Origin: Desulfurococcaceae archaeon
GTDB taxonomy: Archaea; Thermoproteota; Thermoprotei_A; Sulfolobales; Desulfurococcaceae
Direction: 5' to 3'
Assembly: GCA_038824035.1 (NCBI GenBank)
Contig: JAWBBW010000024.1
Span: forward strand, 1-15,155
Length of the DNA: 15,155 nt
Shown: positions 2,764 through 12,131 of the stretch, piece by piece
How the letters are laid out: each line of letters opens with the position of its first letter
How positions within the stretch are numbered: the first letter of the stretch is position 1
Notes under the pieces: generated by a model
What the model was told of the DNA's origin: nothing
What the model saw: the letters and a program-made list of their open reading frames with translations, nothing else
The model's database searches: none
Position numbers and translations under genes: made by a program

Positions 2764-4408
2764 ATGATGATCATAGTTGTCCTAACCATATTGTTGATCG
2801 TGAGCAATATCTTAACATATCAGTTCTCTGCAAGGGTTGAGAGAATAACTGAAACGACAACAATGATCACCACGCGCACGGAGACTATACTAGGACAGAG
2901 ATATCAACAACTACGTTGTTAACAACAATCCCCACAACTATAACCGTTCCGACAACAGTATCAACAACCACAACTATTACAACGACCACGCCCATCACGG
3001 TCACTAGGACGCTCACTGTCACGGAGACAAAGCCGGTCACAGTGGCAGAGGTTACAGGATTGCCATCTCCAGGTGAAATCCAGAGAATGTTCCCAACCAC
3101 TGTTACCATAGAAATACTTGACTCATTCGCAGGTATGCAGGAACACGCCTTCGAGGAGATCACCAGGGCATTCGAGGACTACACTGGTGGTAAGATAAGG
3201 ATTGAGAGAAGTTACACAGATGCTATTATATCGAAGCTAAGGCTACTAGCACTTGACGGTAGATTCGCGGAGATGCCACACATAGTGGGCATGATAGATG
3301 CCGATGTAGCCGCCCTCGTGGCGGCAGGTGCGTTGGAACCAATAGAGGAGTTCGTGATACTCGCGGGTCTTGATCCAAGCGATTTCCAAGCCGATGCATG
3401 GAGAGCGTCATTCATCAAGGATAGGCAATACTATGTGCCAATAGATATACAGCCGTTTGTATTGTATTTTAGGCTAGATTTCGCCAGGCAATACAATGTG
3501 TCACTACCACTGCCGGCTTGCCACTACTACGGCCTTCCATGTTGGAGAAAGCCCTTAGAGACAAGAGAAGACTTCATAGAATGGTTCATGGACGAGGTAA
3601 GTAAGAAAATGCCATTATGGCCGGCCACCCCTACCGGCATAGTTCCATTAGGTTTGCCAGGAGGCGGTTCATGGGAATTCTGGACAGTTGTTGAGACCAA
3701 TGTATTCGCGGGTGATGGGACAGACTGGGACCCGAAACCAGCGTTCACAAGTGAAGAGGCTAAAAAAGCCTACTGGTTCCTCAGAAAGATCGGGACAGTG
3801 CCAGATATCAGTTTGTTCATAGCTTGGTGGGTTCCAATGGATCGGTTGGATGCCTGTATGAGTAATCCACCATACGCTGGACAGGCCAGGGGCACATTTC
3901 TCTGGCCACATGGGACTTGGAAAATAGCGTTATGGGACTTCTACTCTACACAGCCATGTGAGTATGGCGTTATACCATGGCTTAGGGAGACTAGACCATT
4001 TGCCATGAGCCACGTGCTCGCTGTGACTAAGAGAGTGACAATGGCAGATGAATTGACTAAGAAGGCTATATCCATATTCCTGGCGTTTATGTTCCAGCCC
4101 AAATATCAGGGATTATGGGGTGTATACACAGCTCACGCCCCGCTACACTTAGCTCTCAGATATACTATATAACCCTTGCAAGGACAATGCTTGGCGAGAG
4201 AGAGGCTAATGCCAGGCTCATGGTAAGTTACCAAGTTCTTGAATATGGAGTTAAATATGCGCCAAGACATCCCAAGATTAGCACATTGTGGACTATACTA
4301 AATGACCAAATATGGCCAATGACATATCAAAAAGACGCTGACCCCGATTTCATGGCAGAGGTAATACAGGACAGGGTCTTCAGAGAGATGTTACCATTGA
4401 AATGGTGA
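2764..4408 (+). pseudogene. Carbohydrate ABC transporter substrate-binding protein (family 1) interrupted by two frameshifts
   Basis: ATG 2764 gives a signal anchor (MMIIVVLTILLIVSNILTY) and the start of a Thr-rich linker. A -1 shift near 2888 leads into ORF 2916-4172 (GALEPIEE, QYYVPIDIQPFVLYFRLD, typical SBP motifs). A second -1 shift near 4160-4169 leads into ORF 4115-4408 (APRHPKISTLWTILNDQI, SBP-like C-terminus). Confidence 0.75.
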
Positions 4409-4440
4409 TTTTTAACCTCAATCCCTTTTCATCTTTATTT
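4409..4440 (+). terminator. T-rich terminator region between convergent genes
   Basis: TTTTT immediately after TGA 4408, then CTTTTC and CTTTATTT. Confidence 0.4.
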
Positions 4441-4483
4441 AGACCTGAATTAGTTCTCTGGCATGGCTTTAAGGCCAGCGTGA

Positions 4484-5362
4484 TTACCGCGGTTTAAATG
4501 CTATAAACCCCATGGCCTTGTCGTCGAAATATATATTGATAAAGCCAGCTCGTTCAAGCCTGTTCTTCACTCCTTTGAATAAATTAAACCTGCCATGTTT
4601 ACCGGGTTCTCCCGTGTAATGAAATAATCGACCACCTTTTCTCAACACCCTGTATAGTTCTCTATAGAACTCCTCGCTGTACAATTGCCCAGTTGACCGC
4701 GTGAACCTGGGAGGATCATGTATGATCTTAGTGAAGAATTCGGAGGGTAGTTCGTAAACGGCTTTCGTGACATCGTCCTGGTATTTGACGATCCTATTGT
4801 CAGCCAGCGCCTTGCTCCAAGGGTTTCTCTCGGCTATCCACACAACGTTTTCATCGATTTCAAACGTGTATACAATTGATACCCCCTTACGTAGTGATGC
4901 TATCGATGTGTAGCCGAGCCCCATGCACGTGTCGAGGACAACGTCGCCCGGCCCTACGTTGATAGCTCTTATTTTCAATAACGTATCTTTCCAGGGATCA
5001 ATACCCATTATCCTATGCATGTGTATACCATTTATCTCTATTGTAGGGGCCTTGTCCATGCCTATTGCTTTTAACTTGTAATAACCATGCCCTGATGCCT
5101 TAACGACCTCGTATACACGTATCCCTGCATCACCTGTCTCGACAACCACGACTCCATCATCTTTACTGGGCCTTAGGTCGTCTATTTCCAACACAAGACC
5201 CCCTATTTCTACTACATTGCCACGAACACATATCTCTGACTCGGTGACTCCGAGATCCAATGTCGTTCTTACACATTTATTCAAGCCCCGTAAGCGATCT
5301 AGGAGGAAATTCGTGAACCAATACCCGTGGACCGGGTTAAAATCAATGCTTTTTACCAACAT
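4484..5362 (-). CDS. Class I SAM-dependent methyltransferase, archaeal COG2521-like
   Basis: Motif I VLDTCMGLGYT, motif II FEID, motif IV IIHDPPRF, LYRVLRKGGRLFHY, and the conserved-looking PTIEINGIHMH. ATG 5362 follows GGAAAGGT (alternative TTG 5380). Confidence 0.85.
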   Translation of the reverse strand: MLVKSIDFNPVHGYWFTNFLLDRLRGLNKCVRTTLDLGVTESEICVRGNVVEIGGLVLEIDDLRPSKDDGVVVVETGDAGIRVYEVVKASGHGYYKLKAIGMDKAPTIEINGIHMHRIMGIDPWKDTLLKIRAINVGPGDVVLDTCMGLGYTSIASLRKGVSIVYTFEIDENVVWIAERNPWSKALADNRIVKYQDDVTKAVYELPSEFFTKIIHDPPRFTRSTGQLYSEEFYRELYRVLRKGGRLFHYTGEPGKHGRFNLFKGVKNRLERAGFINIYFDDKAMGFIAFKPR

Positions 5363-5756
5363 CGCTACCTTTCCTTGCAATATGCATATCTAGTGGTAAG
5401 AATCTTGTCGCCTTGGAGAGTTTCAATAATTCTTTTCTGAACTCGATGATCCTGGTAGAGATCCCCTCGACCAGTATACTAGCCACATATCCATCTCCCA
5501 GTTTGAAAGTGCATTGCGCTTTCACGATATCAGCGTATTTCAATGTAAGATTGTTATCGATGGGTTTATTTGAATAGAACACTATGACCCCTGTACACAC
5601 ATGTTCCTCGATATCATGTGTGCTCTCGTGCATGTATTCCTCGATCGCGTTTGCCACAATGCTCGATCTATCGCACTTGAAATACTCAGCTAACTTGTCC
5701 AGTTTATCGGCTGTTACAGCCGGTATACTGATGCCGAATCTCCTCTTACAGCTCAT
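5343..5756 (-). CDS. CopG/NikR-like ribbon-helix-helix transcriptional regulator
   Basis: MSCKRRFGISIP...KLDKLAE...DRSSIVANAIEEY is an RHH domain, followed by a His/Cys linker and a NikR-C-like region. ATG 5756 overlaps the permease stop (ATGA). Confidence 0.85.
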   Translation of the reverse strand: MSCKRRFGISIPAVTADKLDKLAEYFKCDRSSIVANAIEEYMHESTHDIEEHVCTGVIVFYSNKPIDNNLTLKYADIVKAQCTFKLGDGYVASILVEGISTRIIEFRKELLKLSKATRFLPLDMHIARKGSDVGKKH

Positions 5757-6616
5757 CGTGGACTCCTCAATAAATATCCTATTATAAACATAGTTATTAA
5801 CACTAAGCCAGTCGTCCCCGTTGGGCTTAATCCAAGTATCAATGATAGGGAAAAGCCAGCAGAGCACGCGAAGATCGATACAAGTATTGTGGAGACCACG
5901 TGTTCTCTCAGATTATCCGCGTAATAAACAGCTGTGATCGATGGTAACAACACCATTACATGTTCCATTATGTAGCCACTGACCCTGAGCAAGGCTATTA
6001 CTGATAAGCCAAGTATAGTGTAGGCCAGCGCGTTAAGTAAGGATACCCTGACCCCGGCTATGCTCGCCGACACCTTGTCAATACTTGTGCTTATCAATTC
6101 ATATATGAAAAATGGCGTGGCTATTAACAACACTAATGCCAATGAAATGATTAAGATAACCTCTTCACTGGTTATTAAGAGAGGGTCTCCGAACACTATA
6201 CTGCTAACAGAGAACCTTACCGGTATACTTGTTAATACATAGTAGGATATTAGGACGCTTAGAGCAGATGTAGAAGAGACCAGGACAGCCGATGCCTTAC
6301 CAGGGTCGAAACCTCTCTCTATCAACATCATCGCCGAGTATATTATTACCAAGCCCATTAAAACAGCGTACACGTATAGATTAACACCTGTATAGTATTC
6401 CAACAAATACCCTAATACCACGCTGAGAAAGCCAGCGTGAGTGATGCCAGCGGCCATGAATTCCAGCCTCTTGTAGTAAACAATGACACTCGTGATCCCA
6501 AAGATTATGCCCATGGATATATATGCGAAGAACCTGCGTGGGTCGTGATAACATGTGATCGATAAAATCACTGACACAGATATGAACGCGATCAGTATTA
6601 ACCATTTCGATCTCAT
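5753..6616 (-). CDS. znuB: Metal (Zn/Mn) ABC transporter permease, ABC-3 family
   Basis: Highly hydrophobic; RLEFMAAGITHAGF, SIVFGDPLLI, SIDKVSASIAGV, LLPSITA motifs. ATGA overlap with the binding-protein gene. Metal specificity not provable. Confidence 0.85.
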   Translation of the reverse strand: MRSKWLILIAFISVSVILSITCYHDPRRFFAYISMGIIFGITSVIVYYKRLEFMAAGITHAGFLSVVLGYLLEYYTGVNLYVYAVLMGLVIIYSAMMLIERGFDPGKASAVLVSSTSALSVLISYYVLTSIPVRFSVSSIVFGDPLLITSEEVILIISLALVLLIATPFFIYELISTSIDKVSASIAGVRVSLLNALAYTILGLSVIALLRVSGYIMEHVMVLLPSITAVYYADNLREHVVSTILVSIFACSAGFSLSLILGLSPTGTTGLVLITMFIIGYLLRSPR

Positions 6617-7632
6617 TTTCTCCGCCTACCGAGTAAGCTCGGGATCATCGATATAGTCACTCCTATGATGACTCCGAGTAATAGTGTCAATGAAGTAGTG
6701 AAGTGGTCGACTGGTTTAAATGGGCATTGCCCGGCGCCCTGTATAGTCATGGTGATATTTCCTATGCCCATCTCCGAGATATTGCTGACCAGGTCTTTGA
6801 GTATACCTATCAACCCCTCTTCGTTACCCATGTCGATTGATATCAATGGCACATTATACCTCTCTGCTAGTTCTCTTAAAACACGTGATTCACTACTTGT
6901 AGCTGGGTACGTTGTGATGGCGAGTAACACTTTATTACTAGAGAACAATCTCTCCAATTCCTGGACGTGGTATGGAGTGGGTTCAATGCCCTCTTCTGGC
7001 TTAACAATCCACGTTGTCTTAAATCCCATCCATTCAACTAGGTATTGGAGCGGTGGCCTATCAATCACGACATTTCCTTTGAAAGTGCCCTTATAGGGCA
7101 ATATGTGGGTTGAGAGCTCTTTTATGACGGTGAGCATGTTTGATATATAGCACTCTGATTTACCCGGGTTAAGTTTTGACAATGTCTCGGAAATATTGAT
7201 CACGAATAACATATAGTTCAATGGATCTCTTATGGGTAGGTGTGGATTAGGTGTATTGGTAACCGGGTTTATCAATAGGGTCAATCCCGGTATCTCCATT
7301 AGATCTATCAAAATAGCCCTGATCTCGCCCTTCTCAACCAGCTCCCTTAGTCTGTGTTCAAACCCTGTGTGTCCAGTCGATACTATTAGATCAGCCTTTT
7401 CGAGCAAATCAATATCGTTTGGCCTTAATTGGTATTCATGTGGATCTATGCCCATTGGGATAAGCGATAAGACATCATCGCCTTGGCATAGTAATCGCTT
7501 GATCTCGATTGCGATTTCGGGGAAAGTGGAGACTATTATTAAGTCGTGATTACTCATCGCCGTGAGTGGCGCTGGCATTGATATTAGCATTATGGAGAGC
7601 ATAAACACCGGTATCAACACCGTCTCACCCAT
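6613..7632 (-). CDS. znuA: Metal ABC transporter substrate-binding protein, ZnuA/TroA family, with C-terminal TM anchor
   Basis: Signal peptide, LIPMGIDPHEYQLRPND, ADLIVSTG..FE, NPHLP, EPT; hydrophobic C-terminus ending in RRRK. ATG 7632 preferred (about 28 nt from a TATA) over GTG 7644. Confidence 0.85.
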   Translation of the reverse strand: MGETVLIPVFMLSIMLISMPAPLTAMSNHDLIIVSTFPEIAIEIKRLLCQGDDVLSLIPMGIDPHEYQLRPNDIDLLEKADLIVSTGHTGFEHRLRELVEKGEIRAILIDLMEIPGLTLLINPVTNTPNPHLPIRDPLNYMLFVINISETLSKLNPGKSECYISNMLTVIKELSTHILPYKGTFKGNVVIDRPPLQYLVEWMGFKTTWIVKPEEGIEPTPYHVQELERLFSSNKVLLAITTYPATSSESRVLRELAERYNVPLISIDMGNEEGLIGILKDLVSNISEMGIGNITMTIQGAGQCPFKPVDHFTTSLTLLLGVIIGVTISMIPSLLGRRRK

Positions 7633-7636
7633 TGAT

Positions 7637-7680
7637 TTGTGCACAATTATTTAAGGGGGTATTAAGTCTATTGTGCACAG
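7637..7680. promoter_or_regulatory. Compact divergent promoter with two palindromic operator-like sites (TTGTGCACAA / TTGTGCACAG)
   Basis: Palindromes at 7637-7646 and 7671-7680 flank TTTAAG (7650-7655, + strand TATA) and TTAATA (7660-7665, - strand TATA). Confidence 0.7.
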
Positions 7681-8448
7681 GTGGACTCATTGAAAATCAC
7701 TGTAAAAGACCTGGTAGTTAAGCGCGGCGATAAACCCGTGATAAGGGATATGAATGTTGAATTCCACGGACCAGGTATATATCAAGTGATAGGGCCCAAT
7801 GGTGTTGGCAAAACAACGCTTTTCCACACAATACTTGGTATTGTTAAGCCTGTGAAAGGAGAGGTTTTTGTCATGGATAGGAAAGTCGATAAATCAAGTG
7901 ATCTAAAGGGGGTGGTTGCATATATGCCACAGGATTTCATAATACCACCCGACATCGCTATCACGGTTTACGAATTCGTCGAGACCGGCTTAAAACTATA
8001 CACCAAGTGGCCAAGGCTTCTACGTAGTGCGCCCAGCACTGTCAACGTAGAGAACGCCTTGGAATCAGTAGGTATAAATAGGTATTTATGGGATAGGAAA
8101 TTATCCCATCTATCTGGTGGAGAGCTCAAGAGGGTTTTATTGGCTAGGGCCATAGCCGTCAACGCGCCGATAATGATCCTCGATGAGCCTTTCTCGGGCA
8201 TAGACCCTGGTGGTAGAATATCAATCGCGGAGGTCTTAGCCAATATCTCTAGGTCTAAGTTGTTATTAATATCTAACCACGACCCAGTGTTATTGCTTGA
8301 AAACACAAATAAGATCCTGGTAATGGGTTTTGGGGAATACATATACGGGGATCCAATTAGTGTATTGAATAATGAGGAATTAGCGAAGATCTATGGTGGC
8401 TGTGTCAAGGTTGTTGAAAAACATATGCATATATCTGATTGGCACTGA
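7681..8448 (+). CDS. znuC: Metal ABC transporter ATP-binding protein
   Basis: Walker A GPNGVGKTT, Q-loop YMPQ, signature LSGGE, Walker B ILDEPFSGID, H-loop SNHD; divergent from the znuA/znuB-like genes. Confidence 0.9.
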   Translation: MDSLKITVKDLVVKRGDKPVIRDMNVEFHGPGIYQVIGPNGVGKTTLFHTILGIVKPVKGEVFVMDRKVDKSSDLKGVVAYMPQDFIIPPDIAITVYEFVETGLKLYTKWPRLLRSAPSTVNVENALESVGINRYLWDRKLSHLSGGELKRVLLARAIAVNAPIMILDEPFSGIDPGGRISIAEVLANISRSKLLLISNHDPVLLLENTNKILVMGFGEYIYGDPISVLNNEELAKIYGGCVKVVEKHMHISDWH

Positions 8449-8575
8449 GCTCCATCCTATATACGTCTTTAATAACAGGCCATAATGTTTAAAAGCCTTT
8501 CAAATATCATTAATTTCAAAACAGTAATATATGACAATATATAGATGTAATAAGCTATTATATAGGCGATGATTT

Positions 8576-9826
8576 GTGAATATCAGGATATATAGCTCTA
8601 CTAGCAATATATATGAGAAAGGGAAGAGACTTTGGTACATGGAATCATCTCTATATAACTACTCAATAAACATATCAATGGGTATTGTGAACGCACTTGT
8701 CATAAAGATACTGGGTTACGGAGTGGTTGAGCTTGGTTTACTCACATTTCTGAGATTACTCGCCATAGCGTTGAGCCAGTTCCCGGCAGTTTATTTAACA
8801 ATGTTTCATAGGGATAAACGTAAATGGGTATGGTTCATCCTAGGCAGTGTCAACAGGGTTGGATGGGCATTAATGATTATCTCGATTTTCCTGCCGAGAG
8901 GAATAGACCTTGTTTACATCTTTACATTGACATTCATAGCTCAGTTTACCGGGGGTATTGCCGGGGTCGCCGCGTCAGACACCATTGGTGACTTGATCCC
9001 GCCATCCATGTCTACACTGGTTTTTGCACGTGTTAATCAATTCAATTACATGGCCACGGCGATGTCATATGTGACAACTGTTTTGGTTTTCATCTCGCCG
9101 TTCGATAGTGTGACAAGGTATATCATCGCGTACATGGTGGCGTTATCGGCCGCCATGGCCTCGGCTATTATATTATATTTTATCCCTGATCCCGAAATCA
9201 CGGATTCACCCAGGGTGATGGGTGTTAGGAATGGTGATGTGGTTTTATTCAAAGACATCATCGCTGAGAAGAAGTTGAGGAATTACCTGACAGTGATATC
9301 GATGTTCAATTTCGCTGTCAACATACCTGCGGCTTTCTGGGATTACATAGTCTTGAACGTGACAAATGGAATGGAGGTCTTCATAGTGTTGAAAAACATT
9401 GTAAACCTTGGCATAAAGTTCACTGGCATGAAATGGTGGCAGAGATATGTTATGAAAATAGGCGTTAAGAAGGCGTTTGTCCGTGGATTAGCTTTCACAA
9501 GCTTAATCCCGATCGCGTATATCGAGGTGATATCTCCAATGGAGATCATAGGAATAGAGGTCTACAGTGGGTTTACATGGATACCCGTGGATCTCGGGTC
9601 AATGATCTACAATATATACTTGCCACCAAGTAGTGCTAGGCCAGTTTATGTATCCACAATCAACTTGGCCACTAATCTAGTGTCTAGTATAGCGTCATAT
9701 GTCGGTACCTCGATAGCTATGTCCACGGGTAGTGTGATCCCGGTTTTAATAGCCTCCGGGGTTCTGAGGGGTGTAACAGCTGGAATCGCTAGTAGGATTT
9801 TGCCTGAAATAAATAAGGAGAAATAA
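8576..9826 (+). CDS. MFS transporter
   Basis: 416 aa, about 12 hydrophobic segments in two halves with a central hydrophilic loop; IGDLIPPSM and YLPPSSARPVYVS resemble MFS motifs. Confidence 0.8.
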   Translation: MNIRIYSSTSNIYEKGKRLWYMESSLYNYSINISMGIVNALVIKILGYGVVELGLLTFLRLLAIALSQFPAVYLTMFHRDKRKWVWFILGSVNRVGWALMIISIFLPRGIDLVYIFTLTFIAQFTGGIAGVAASDTIGDLIPPSMSTLVFARVNQFNYMATAMSYVTTVLVFISPFDSVTRYIIAYMVALSAAMASAIILYFIPDPEITDSPRVMGVRNGDVVLFKDIIAEKKLRNYLTVISMFNFAVNIPAAFWDYIVLNVTNGMEVFIVLKNIVNLGIKFTGMKWWQRYVMKIGVKKAFVRGLAFTSLIPIAYIEVISPMEIIGIEVYSGFTWIPVDLGSMIYNIYLPPSSARPVYVSTINLATNLVSSIASYVGTSIAMSTGSVIPVLIASGVLRGVTAGIASRILPEINKEK

Positions 9827-9845: not shown

Positions 9846-9874
9846 TTTAAACCCATATAGGTAAAAATGGGTTT
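9846..9874 (+). promoter_or_regulatory. TATA box and inverted repeat upstream of nreA
   Basis: TTTAAA 9846-9851, 28 nt before ATG 9879; AAACCCAT (9849-9856)-N10-ATGGGTTT (9867-9874). Confidence 0.5.
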
Positions 9875-9878
9875 GTGG

Positions 9879-11132
9879 ATGAGTAATCGTCTAGTTTTCA
9901 ATGGATCGATGTGTATCACATGCAGGGGAAAGGGTTTATGCGGTCTTGCATATTGCCCTGTCATAGCCAAGGCTAAGGCTAGTTTGAGGCTCAGGAACGT
10001 GGCTTTGTCAAATGTTATCGAGGGGTCTTCCCCACCCTCCCTTTTTGTGGGTAGAATTGGCTACCCATATGTGAGGGCTGGGCCCTCCACACCTCCTTTA
10101 ATAGGTGACACGGCTATTTTCGATTACCCCGAGAATTGGTTGGGGAAAAGAATTGAAGAGATCCTCGAATACAGGTGGCTACTTGTTACAGGGTTTAAGG
10201 TTGTCGATGTGAGGAAACCGAGTGATAAGGTCCTCGATGAATCCAGGTTAATAGCGCTTAGTTCTAGGCCAGTGGATGTCGTCATTGTTCTTAGCAAGCC
10301 TCCCAAACCCACGATCTCGCTTAACGATCACGAGCCACCACAGGGCCCTCGCTCAATGTTGGAGAACTTAAGGATTCTCAGTAACCCGGTTATCCCTAGG
10401 CCTGTTGACAGGGTTTACAATGATGTCGATCTACCGGCATCAGATGCCGTGGTGTATCTATATGAACACGGTATATCGGTTTCACATATACAGAAGATAC
10501 TAAGCATGGGTGGTCTAGGCGTTAAGGGGCAAAGAAGGCTTGTCCCAACTAGGTGGAGTATCACGGCAGTTGACAGTGTGCTATGTAAGCACCTGGCCAA
10601 GGAGATCAAGAGATATGGCGTTATCAACGAGATAATGGTTTTCGAGAAAAAGATCCACGATAACTTATTCATAGCAATACTGTATCCGGCTAAATGGAGT
10701 TATGAGTGGTTAGAGGCGTGGTGGCCCGGCTCTATTTGGAATCCTGGACAAGGCGATGTCGTCGTGGAGGGGGATTACGAGGACTATTTCGGTAGGACAA
10801 CGTATCCGGGTATAGGTGGTTGTTATTACGCCAGTATGTTGGCTACTCTGGAATACCTGAGGGGCGCTAAGAGACAGGCCTCGGCGATCTTGATGAGGGA
10901 GATCTACCCGGGTTTCAATATACCGATAGGTGTGTGGTTTGTTAGAGAGTCCTGTAGAGCCATGTTTAAATCAGGCCCTGTTCTCAGGACAAACGATCTA
11001 AGGGAGGTCTATGAATTCCTGGATAAGGAAACCAGGTTAGGAGCTGGTAAATGGTTTTCATCTTCAAGGCTGATCCAGAGGATCGCGTGGACTAGGAGGA
11101 TCGGTGAATATTTCAAGCCACGAGGCCCTTGA
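9879..11132 (+). CDS. nreA: Nre family archaeal DNA repair protein (DUF650/DUF651)
   Basis: N-terminal CITCRGKGLCGLAYCP, GSSPPSLFVGRIGYP, RRLVPTRWSITAVD, GGCYYA, REIYPGFNIPIGVWFVRE, and a PIP-like C-terminus. Alternative ATG at 9867. Confidence 0.9.
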   Translation: MSNRLVFNGSMCITCRGKGLCGLAYCPVIAKAKASLRLRNVALSNVIEGSSPPSLFVGRIGYPYVRAGPSTPPLIGDTAIFDYPENWLGKRIEEILEYRWLLVTGFKVVDVRKPSDKVLDESRLIALSSRPVDVVIVLSKPPKPTISLNDHEPPQGPRSMLENLRILSNPVIPRPVDRVYNDVDLPASDAVVYLYEHGISVSHIQKILSMGGLGVKGQRRLVPTRWSITAVDSVLCKHLAKEIKRYGVINEIMVFEKKIHDNLFIAILYPAKWSYEWLEAWWPGSIWNPGQGDVVVEGDYEDYFGRTTYPGIGGCYYASMLATLEYLRGAKRQASAILMREIYPGFNIPIGVWFVRESCRAMFKSGPVLRTNDLREVYEFLDKETRLGAGKWFSSSRLIQRIAWTRRIGEYFKPRGP

Positions 11133-11148
11133 AATCCAGGTGTTCACA

Positions 11149-11955
11149 GTGGTTTTTAGGAAATTCCTGGTTCACAGCGTTTTCGTTGACAAGGCTCTCT
11201 CTAAGTCGGGTCTACCGGATTTAACATATGCGTTAAACCCATATATCGGTTGTTCTCATGGATGTGTATACTGTTACGCCAGGCTATACACGAGGGATAA
11301 GAGGGTCTCCGAGAACTGGGGTAGAATCGTACTGGTGAAAGAGAATTTGCCGAAAGTGCTTGAGTGGGAAACGAGGGCGTTGAGAAAAGGAGTGGTTGGT
11401 GTTGGCACAATAACGGATGCTTATCAACCAGTGGAAGCGGTATACAGGGTTACGAGGAGGTGTTTAGAGATATTGTTGAAAGCTGGTTTCGAGATCAGTA
11501 TACAGACGAAAAACCCCCTTGTACTCAGGGATATGGACCTCCTAGCTGAGCACAGGGATAAAATAGACATAGGGTTCACGATAACCAGCCTGGATAGAGA
11601 GGTGGCTAGGTTTATAGAGCCGAACTCGCCATCGCCGATGTCAAGGGCTAATGCATTACGCGAGATCAGGGAGATTGGTATTAAGACCTGGTTATTCTAC
11701 GGCCCCATAATACCTGGTCTAAACGATGATTACGAAACCATGAAAGCCATTACCGAGATCGCCGCTGACACGGGTTCAACGCTATACTATGACCCGCTCC
11801 ACGTTAAAGCGTTCATGAGGGATCAAAAGCACCCACTTAACCCATATCTATACAGGATGACGAGTAATTGGAGAAAACAATTAGAAAAAAAGCTCATAAA
11901 CTTATGTATGAAACATGGGTTAACGTGTAAACCAGGTTTCAGGGGGGATGCATAG
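11149..11955 (+). CDS. Radical SAM protein, spore photoproduct lyase-like family
   Basis: LNPYIGCSHGCVYCYA (CxxxCxxC), GTITDAYQPVE, IQTK..LVLRD, EP...P..R, PIIPGLND. GTG 11149 has AGGTG 6 nt upstream (ORF track start 11104). Confidence 0.85.
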   Translation: MVFRKFLVHSVFVDKALSKSGLPDLTYALNPYIGCSHGCVYCYARLYTRDKRVSENWGRIVLVKENLPKVLEWETRALRKGVVGVGTITDAYQPVEAVYRVTRRCLEILLKAGFEISIQTKNPLVLRDMDLLAEHRDKIDIGFTITSLDREVARFIEPNSPSPMSRANALREIREIGIKTWLFYGPIIPGLNDDYETMKAITEIAADTGSTLYYDPLHVKAFMRDQKHPLNPYLYRMTSNWRKQLEKKLINLCMKHGLTCKPGFRGDA

Positions 11956-12053: not shown

Positions 12054-12131
12054 GGGCCCGTCGCCTAGCCAGGATAGGGCGCCGGCCTCCGGAGCCGGAG
12101 GACCCGGGTTCAAATCCCGGCGGGCCCGCCA
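12054..12131 (+). tRNA. tRNA-Arg (anticodon CCG), intronless, CCA encoded
   Basis: Acceptor GGGCCCG/CGGGCCC, D arm GCCTAGCCAGGATAGGGC, anticodon arm CCGGC-CTCCGGA-GCCGG (CCG at 12089-12091), T arm CCGGG-TTCAAAT-CCCGG, G-CCA end. Confidence 0.97.

Follow-up and report, generated by a model that had tools for sequence, protein, structure and literature searches.

The window analyzed here, a 15,155-nucleotide (nt) stretch of DNA from a Desulfurococcaceae archaeon, is contig C24 of a 1.33-Mb archaeal genome with a completeness of 99.67%. It carries a metal transporter locus in which the genes of a ZnuA/TroA-family binding protein and an ABC-3 family permease are followed by that of a small regulator, with the gene of an ABC transporter ATPase running divergently. 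The regulator, the palindromes between the divergent genes, and the metal to which the system may respond are the subject of this report. The genes of the locus are the following.

4484..5380, minus strand: methyltransferase-like gene overlapping the 3′ end of the regulator gene (weak Pfam N6_N4_Mtase and Cons_hypoth95 matches)
5343..5756, minus strand: regulator gene, 137 amino acids read from the ATG at 5756; N-terminal ribbon-helix-helix (RHH) and NikR-type beta-alpha-beta-beta-alpha-beta domain
5753..6616, minus strand: ABC-3 family permease, znuB-like (Pfam ABC-3, E 7.3e-27)
6613..7644, minus strand: first gene of the operon, encoding a metal-binding protein of the ZnuA/TroA family (cluster A-I) that is membrane anchored at its C terminus (Pfam ZnuA, E 6.3e-25)
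7681..8448, plus strand: ABC transporter ATPase, znuC-like, divergent (Pfam ABC_tran, E 9.8e-25)

The ATG of the regulator shares an ATGA with the stop codon of the permease (4-nt overlap), the znuA/znuB junction is also a 4-nt overlap, and the regulator orthologues start at the same position as the window's gene. The distance from znuA to the divergent znuC is 36 bp. A first-pass annotation of the sequence had described the regulator as coupled within a znuA-znuB operon divergent from znuC, and the overlaps, gene coordinates, and Pfam matches bear this out. The top NCBIfam match of the znuC-like ATPase was AztA (2.6e-33), which lies under the cut-off of that model. Three metatranscriptome runs from the same study, of which ∼3 to 5% each was sampled, gave 0 reads mapping to positions 4300 to 9000.

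A bipartite operator in the divergent promoter

The znuA/znuC promoter contains two copies of the 8-bp palindrome TGTGCACA, considered here as the half-sites of an operator. The sequence TTGTGCACA occurs in the window twice (7637-7645 and 7671-7679), and the two copies make up the arms (7638-7647 and 7670-7679, with 22 nt between them) of a perfect inverted repeat of 10 nt. The resulting arrangement is as follows.

7638..7645, unstranded: left operator half-site, 8-bp palindrome, which overlaps the GTG (7642-7644) that opens the longest znuA frame and lies 6 nt upstream of an alternative ATG (7630-7632)
7646..7671, unstranded: AT-rich 26-bp spacer with two outward-facing TATA-like boxes, the predicted divergent promoters of znuC and of znuA-znuB-regulator
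7672..7679, unstranded: right operator half-site, a second copy of the 8-bp palindrome, with 1 nt between its end and the GTG of znuC at 7681

TATA-like runs were present in all of the orthologous spacers, which are 23 to 27 bp long. Archaeal promoters can be assigned from the usual distance between the TATA box and the transcription start; under this spacing, one palindrome is predicted to coincide with the start region of znuC and the other with that of znuA.

Gene linkage, operator conservation, and operator uniqueness were computed directly from the genomes. The operator was scored as conserved when a pair of half-sites showed no more than 2 mismatches over its 16 positions and was separated by 23 to 27 bp. 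Such a pair is located just upstream of znuA in 29/31 loci; the two others are a locus cut by the end of its contig (L023) and a locus in which one half-site was seen (L038). The pair was also found in 7 further promoters, namely, those of G009, G038, and 5/5 others, four of these five being from other orders. The intergenic operator that the first-pass annotation had pointed to is thus strongly conserved.

In the 1.33-Mb genome, the exact 8-mer has 18 copies. The two in the window form the sole exact pair, and the other 16 are single copies located mostly inside open frames. When up to one mismatch per half-site and a 20- to 30-bp spacer were allowed, 3 pairs were counted genome-wide, and 20 shuffles gave 0 to 6. 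Because such relaxed pairs are this infrequent, the presence of a pair inside one given 40-bp promoter is far beyond chance. The annotation had also spoken of a regulon, which was not borne out: the operator pair is found at this single divergent promoter, and a regulon beyond this locus was rejected on the basis that the genome has no second exact pair. A literature search for the 8-mer returned primers and unrelated matches only.

A regulator family with the NikR fold

The fold, family, and conserved residues of the regulator were computed directly as well. Pfam yielded a single match to the window's protein, to RHH_3 and below threshold (E 0.0027). NikR_C did not match it even at E ≤10, and no Pfam match was obtained for the DtxR/TroR-type domains (Fe_dep_repress and Fe_dep_repr_C) or for the FUR domain. 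Among 31 family members, RHH_3 was matched in 27/31, RHH_1 in 23/31, and NikR_C in 17/31. A word-index homology search with the regulator retrieved one relative only; more came from exhaustive and genome searches. An AlphaFold2 model was built from an alignment of 31 orthologues and reached a mean predicted local distance difference test (pLDDT) score of 88.7. It consists of the RHH helices followed by a beta-alpha-beta-beta-alpha-beta domain, with helices at residues 30-49, 68-73, and 100-113 and strands at residues 53-62, 78-86, 89-99, and 116-125.

The top Foldseek matches of the model were full-length NikR structures, matched over the whole length, with a template modeling (TM) score of 0.71 to 0.73 and an E value of 1.8e-8 for Pyrococcus horikoshii NikR (PhNikR; 2bj3/2bj1). 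VIA-align superimposed the model on PhNikR with a Z of 12.9 and a root mean square deviation (rmsd) of 2.8 over 125 residues, the alignment beginning at residue 2; Z was 11.8 for Escherichia coli NikR and 10.3 (rmsd, 1.6 to 1.7) for isolated NikR C-domains. At the sequence level, the family profile detected PhNikR (E 5.6e-12) and Helicobacter pylori NikR (HpNikR; E 1e-8), and hhalign related the regulator to the genome's own canonical NikR with a probability of 97.9 at ∼19% identity. The RHH plus NikR-C-like architecture seen at first pass is borne out by the model and by these structure, profile, and hhalign matches, which support the description of the regulator as a non-canonical NikR-fold RHH protein.

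To judge from profile scores, the regulator belongs to a compact Thermoproteota family set apart from canonical NikR. In a search of 151 genomes of the class, the scores were bimodal: 79 matches in 78 genomes scored at least 103.9 bits and all others scored at most 69.6 bits, which argues for a separate family rather than merely a poor NikR. The genome's canonical NikR, at 52.6 bits, is in the lower group. The family occurs in 28/29 searched genomes of the window's taxonomic family, in several other families, and in two taxonomic families from other orders of the class; in the same search, family-level matches were absent from f13 (0/34), f14 (0/7), and f18 (0/9). An exhaustive HMMER search of 1.84 billion representative proteins returned only 82 clusters at E ≤1e-3. 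Members carry the public name "CopG family transcriptional regulator" (in Desulfurococcus amylolyticus and in metagenome-assembled genomes), one public source names them "CopG family nickel-responsive transcriptional regulator," and the Atlas places the regulator among Thermoproteota CopG clusters in which 65 to 77% of the members have NikR_C. Literature searches found no description of this NikR-like family; an earlier in silico mention is possible, as comparative-genomics papers on nickel/cobalt transporters and NikR sites and on archaeal DtxR regulons lay outside these searches.

The linkage of the regulator to ABC-3 genes, which the first-pass annotation had proposed as a check, is near-universal among relatives. 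The regulator gene directly follows the ABC-3 permease gene in 31/32 of the relatives' loci and in 11/12 further loci (3 of which repeat genomes already counted and 4 of which come from other orders). The two exceptions, G038 (L035) and G160 (L075), belong to the same taxonomic family (f3), and in both, the regulator gene is not beside the transporter. In G038, it is located between a Hjc resolvase gene and a CBS-domain gene, and the znuA orthologue elsewhere in that genome keeps the operator pair. Conversely, five near-complete genomes without the regulator (G026, G027, G030, G033, and G036) have ZnuA paralogues of 22 to 28% identity or none, and the operator motif was not found at the ZnuA paralogues of these five genomes.

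Two of these genomes, which are from the window's order and have no RHH regulator, possess tro-like operons in the order ZnuA, ATPase, ABC-3 permease, and DtxR-family regulator (G026, L062:1510-4665; G027, L063:1836-4893). A classical DtxR-family regulator thus sits in the terminal slot that the RHH gene fills elsewhere. Regulators of the DtxR family control importers of the Tro/Znu type in other genomes, two of this order among them, and the window's genome encodes a DtxR-family protein with a FeoA domain. The palindromes could accordingly be the operator of another regulator such as this one, with the RHH protein in some other role (a metallochaperone, an antitoxin-like protein, or another kind of regulation). 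We regard this as very improbable. With the genome's own DtxR-family protein as the query, no DtxR-family homologue was found at E ≤1e-5 in G025 or G034 (both 99% complete), yet the regulator, the transporter, and the operator pair are all present in these two genomes. G026, G027, and G036, in turn, have good DtxR orthologues and no RHH regulator, and they lack either the motif at their ZnuA paralogues or any ZnuA match. A FUR-family gene was not found in the window's 99.67%-complete genome at E ≤0.1. Finally, the DNA-reading strand of the RHH domain (K4, R6, F7, G8, and S10) is nearly invariant, in parallel with the invariant half-site. Because the operator and the regulator co-occur across genomes, the RHH protein is favored as the predicted binder of the palindromes.

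The conserved His/Cys cluster and the NikR-type site

Two sets of potential metal ligands were compared across the family.

5595..5630, minus strand: codons of H43, H47, H52, and C54 (H-x3-H-x4-H-x-C), at the end of helix 2, in the linker, and where the first strand of the C-terminal domain begins; proposed sensing site
5487..5510, minus strand: residues 83-90, aligned with the NikR-type H-x-H-x4-C; here T83, K85, and Y90

Ligands were counted, in the numbering of the window's protein, in the 111 sequences that were left of 33 genome-derived sequences and 82 representatives once exact duplicates and all sequences not between 100 and 200 amino acids long had been removed. The linker cluster, whose conservation the first-pass annotation had named as a point to check, proved to be the most conserved feature of the family: C54 is present in 111/111 sequences, H52 in 108/111, and H47 in 103/111, with H43 in 47/111. 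Neither PhNikR nor the genome's own NikR has H47, H52, or C54. The NikR-type motif is less widespread. H83 was found in 86/111 sequences, H85 in 85/111, and C90 in 86/111, the full H-x-H-x4-C being assigned to 86/111, and residue 73, the position of NikR's fourth, trans-subunit His, is His in 2/111. In the window's regulator, all four nickel ligands are replaced (T83, K85, Y90, and K73). The earlier statement that the NikR nickel ligands are absent therefore holds for the window's protein and its clade and does not hold family-wide.

The two ligand sets co-vary. Among the 86 members with H-x-H-x4-C, 23 have H43, 4 have C124, 51 have C115, and 38 have H107; among the 25 without it, the corresponding numbers are 24, 20, 0, and 0. 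In a quick maximum-likelihood tree, 24 of these 25 sequences form one clade nested among those that keep the motif, with a Shimodaira-Hasegawa-like approximate likelihood ratio test (SH-aLRT) value of 92, below the 95 mark. Because the noncarriers are grouped in this way, the alignment and tree point to a single loss of the NikR-like site in the window's lineage, in which the family-specific site would have been reinforced through fixation of H43 and gain of a C-terminal Cys. As a separate observation, the window's regulator carries C82 (5508-5513, minus strand), immediately preceding the position of the lost first His; a Cys of this type occurs in 11/25 of the members that lost the NikR-type site and in 0/86 of the others.

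In a ferredoxin/ACT-type sheet, the strand order is 4-1-3-2. Taken together with the elements of the model, this order would place C54, where strand 1 begins, next to residue 124, where strand 4 ends, and H43 and H47 would be on the final turns of the RHH helix preceding strand 1. The NikR-type site, made up of the end of strand 2, the beginning of strand 3, and the C115-containing loop that precedes strand 4, would be at the opposite pole. The conserved cluster is thereby predicted to sit where the DNA-binding domain meets the regulatory domain.

Clusters of invariant Cys/His residues at the junctions of domains frequently have a structural role. The NikR of H. pylori responds to pH in addition (PMC11672702). 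The regulator might thus repress the locus while its His/Cys cluster holds a structural metal and its signal is something other than the transported metal. Set against this possibility, which we judge quite improbable, the gene occupies the slot of metal-sensing regulators in tro-like operons, the co-variation of the ligand sets suggests the functional replacement of one site by another, and the scaffold is that of a dedicated metal sensor.

Metal, mechanism, and relation to known metalloregulators

The closest solved (PDB) sequence relatives of the ZnuA-like protein bind Mn, Zn, or Fe, and the NCBIfam matches of the importer are mixed and far below their cut-offs. From its sequence, the importer is assigned to the Zn/Mn/Fe class. 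Zinc-specific ZnuA-type proteins have a His at the third ligand position. In the ZnuA orthologues, two ligand His residues are invariant, the third position is Asp/Glu in most (27/31 rows), and the fourth ligand Asp is not conserved, such that zinc, the metal suggested at first pass, is not established. Because a Cys ligand speaks against manganese and suits Zn, Fe(II), Ni, or Co, the invariant Cys of the sensor would argue against manganese. Zinc is favored weakly as the metal, at somewhat under even odds; Fe(II) or Mn is a less likely answer, and Ni or Co is an unlikely one. Nickel is made less likely by the presence of a separate, true NikR in the same genome.

This canonical NikR is encoded at G000:C8:46113-46541 (NikR_C, 84 to 86 bits) with all four ligand positions filled. 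The surrounding region, G000:C8:45370-49476 (L009 and L053), encodes, after the canonical NikR, a ZnuA-family protein, a protein with an FmdE domain, an ABC ATPase, and an ABC-3 permease, and a BPD_transp_1 permease and another ABC ATPase are located upstream. Of the canonical NikR loci of other genomes, the two that were examined (L043 and L044) are not beside such genes.

Between the canonical nikR stop codon and the next ATG (L009:1783-1809, corresponding to G000:C8:46557-46583), there are two GTGCAC hexamers, 15 bp apart and 21 bp from center to center; GTGCAC is also the core of the window's operator. The genome has 151 copies of this hexamer, which form three pairs with an 8- to 32-bp spacer: the pair at the canonical nikR locus, that of the window's operator (28 bp), and one in a coding frame. 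Since pairs of the same hexamer are present at both loci, 15 bp apart at one and 28 bp at the other, the two paralogues are suggested to share a half-site and to differ in its spacing.

The canonical NikR also bears on the possibility that the window's regulator is still a nickel or cobalt sensor, that is, a divergent NikR controlling an ABC-3/ZnuA-type transporter that imports nickel in archaea without NikABCDE or NikMNQO. The NikR site is a square-planar His3Cys site (PMC11672702), and the new cluster has the same His3Cys composition. Retention of H-x-H-x4-C in 86/111 members and the nickel-responsive name in one public source point in the same direction. In PMC2667541, a Nik/CbiMNQO-type nickel transporter is assigned in 1/4 Desulfurococcales, with an unassigned one in 1 more (Table 3), and 3/4 are listed as Ni-Fe hydrogenase users (Table 5). 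A second nickel sensor would, however, be redundant, because a canonical NikR (NikR_C, 84.4 bits), with each of its four ligand positions occupied, is already encoded in the genome next to a second ZnuA/ABC-3 cluster. In addition, nothing of the canonical-type site is left in the window's clade, a His at the fourth, trans-subunit position is found in only 2/111 members even with the H-x-H-x4-C keepers included, and the nearest relatives of the binding protein with solved structures are Mn, Zn, or Fe binders. We consider a nickel or cobalt sensor of this kind rather improbable.

The most probable function of the window's regulator, to which we assign a probability of about 0.72, is that of a divergent NikR-fold metalloregulator acting as a metal-dependent repressor of its own transporter locus. 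We infer that the protein binds the operator and that the imported metal, possibly zinc, serves as co-repressor. When plentiful, the metal would bind the His/Cys site formed by H43 and H47 at the end of RHH helix 2, H52 in the linker, and C54 in the first strand of the C-terminal domain; in most of the window's clade, a Cys at the end of the last strand would join this site. Because this site would bridge both domains, metal binding may fix the relative orientation of the DNA-binding and regulatory domains, and the fixed orientation would let the RHH dimers insert into the two palindromes. Since the palindromes bracket the back-to-back TATA boxes and are predicted to cover both transcription start regions, occupancy of the operator would block the initiation of znuC on one side and of znuA-znuB-regulator on the other, and the regulator would by the same token be autoregulated.

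Several points weigh against repression of this kind. The assignment of the RHH protein as the binder of the palindromes is drawn only from co-occurrence and position. The closeness of H43, H47, H52, C54, and position 124 is deduced from the strand order of the model, and the cluster could be structural instead of sensing. The window's regulator itself lacks the C-terminal Cys of its clade, having M124, adjoining H125, in its place. The ligands of the binding protein (His, His, and Asp/Glu, with no conserved fourth Asp) do not clearly indicate zinc. Known NikR operators (E. coli and H. pylori) have two dyad-related half-sites spanning roughly two helical turns; dyad-related half-sites are present here as well, but their centers are 31 to 35 bp apart across the loci, an interval that might be bridged by a single stretched tetramer, by bending of the DNA, or by two tetramers.

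The likeness to the NikR proteins of E. coli, H. pylori, and P. horikoshii (PDB 2bj1/2bj3 and 2hza) extends beyond the two-domain architecture and fold. The size is nearly the same (137 versus 138 amino acids), the window's regulator is, like NikR, encoded beside the ABC importer that is its presumed target of repression, the ligands are of the same His/Cys type, and the predicted operator similarly comprises two separated symmetric half-sites. In contrast to NikR, the window's protein lacks all four nickel ligands, and the family ligands H47, H52, and C54 would be located at the other end of the domain, where it joins the RHH. The target is a ZnuA/ABC-3 (cluster A-I) importer and not NikABCDE or NikMNQO, the half-sites are 8-bp palindromes at the wide spacing given above, and members of the family score 104 bits or more on the family profile, canonical NikR falling among the matches at 70 or less. 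As regards the domains that define NikR, RHH is present, and the NikR-type C-domain is present by fold, not by Pfam, in the window's protein. On the aligned residues, however, strict membership in the NikR family fails at the defining nickel site. NikR is also an obligate homotetramer whose core is built of the regulatory domains, and it binds DNA and controls genes of nickel uptake or use in a nickel-dependent manner; the genes around the window's regulator are those of a ZnuA/ABC-3 importer.

TroR and other DtxR-family repressors would have the same job as the window's regulator, and in the operons of G026 and G027, they occupy the same terminal slot; they are likewise autoregulated, metal-dependent repressors of a cluster A-I importer, a role predicted here for the RHH protein. 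Their fold is unrelated (a winged helix and DtxR metal domain versus RHH and an ACT-like domain), and they differ in the operator and in gene order, with znuC divergent at the window's locus. Zur, a Fur-family protein and the usual repressor of znuABC zinc uptake, would have the same physiological role if the metal is zinc; it is not homologous, and the search at E ≤0.1 found no FUR-family gene in the genome.

The first-pass observation as a whole is confirmed. Its interpretation, a repurposed NikR scaffold with a new metal site, stands with respect to the NikR fold, the relocated and conserved His/Cys cluster, and the operator, but not with respect to zinc or a regulon. The best reading of the sequences is a NikR-fold family with a relocated, better-conserved metal site that appears to be dedicated to a Znu/Tro-type importer via a deeply conserved bipartite operator.

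NikR has been described as sensing "nickel only" (PMC11672702), and in a 2026 preprint (bioRxiv 10.64898/2026.05.01.721428), the family is treated as functionally complete and its proteins are described as sensing nickel only. A textbook metalloregulator family devoted to one metal here has a sister family with a different, better-conserved ligand cluster. With a different class of transporter targeted and the old site lost, the locus offers a natural experiment, in which it becomes testable how a metal-sensing scaffold changes its site, and possibly its metal, and how two paralogous RHH regulators in one cell avoid cross-talk. If true, the proposal would fill the place of the missing regulator of Znu/Tro-type importers across a large hyperthermophilic archaeal group. 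It also gives an annotation rule for members now labeled only "CopG family" or "nickel-responsive." More tentatively, with chances a little short of one in two, this may be the first NikR-fold family other than a nickel sensor: a Zn (or Fe/Mn) sensor of Thermoproteota with the metal site moved to the domain junction and one lineage discarding the ancestral site, doing the job of TroR/DtxR or Zur, and maybe kept apart from true NikR by half-site spacing (approximately three versus two helical turns) rather than by half-site sequence.

The position of the methyltransferase-like gene that overlaps the regulator is kept in most genomes of the window's taxonomic family, with an identity of 48 to 62%, above that of the transporter genes. 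It is possibly co-transcribed with the regulator and is at most a candidate member of the system. Directly downstream of znuC, the window encodes a major facilitator superfamily (MFS)-type transporter (8576-9826, plus strand; MFS_1, 32.8 bits against a cut-off of 33.4), a homologue of which is near the locus in G002 too. It is followed by an archaeal Nre protein (9867-11132, plus strand; Nre_N, E 1.5e-101; Nre_C, 1.9e-32), which is also found near the transporter locus in several relatives, and by a radical-SAM gene (11104-11955, plus strand) overlapping the end of the Nre gene. A tRNA-Arg (CCG) gene is located at 12054-12131 (plus strand) in a stretch of lower GC content (0.38) with few long open frames.

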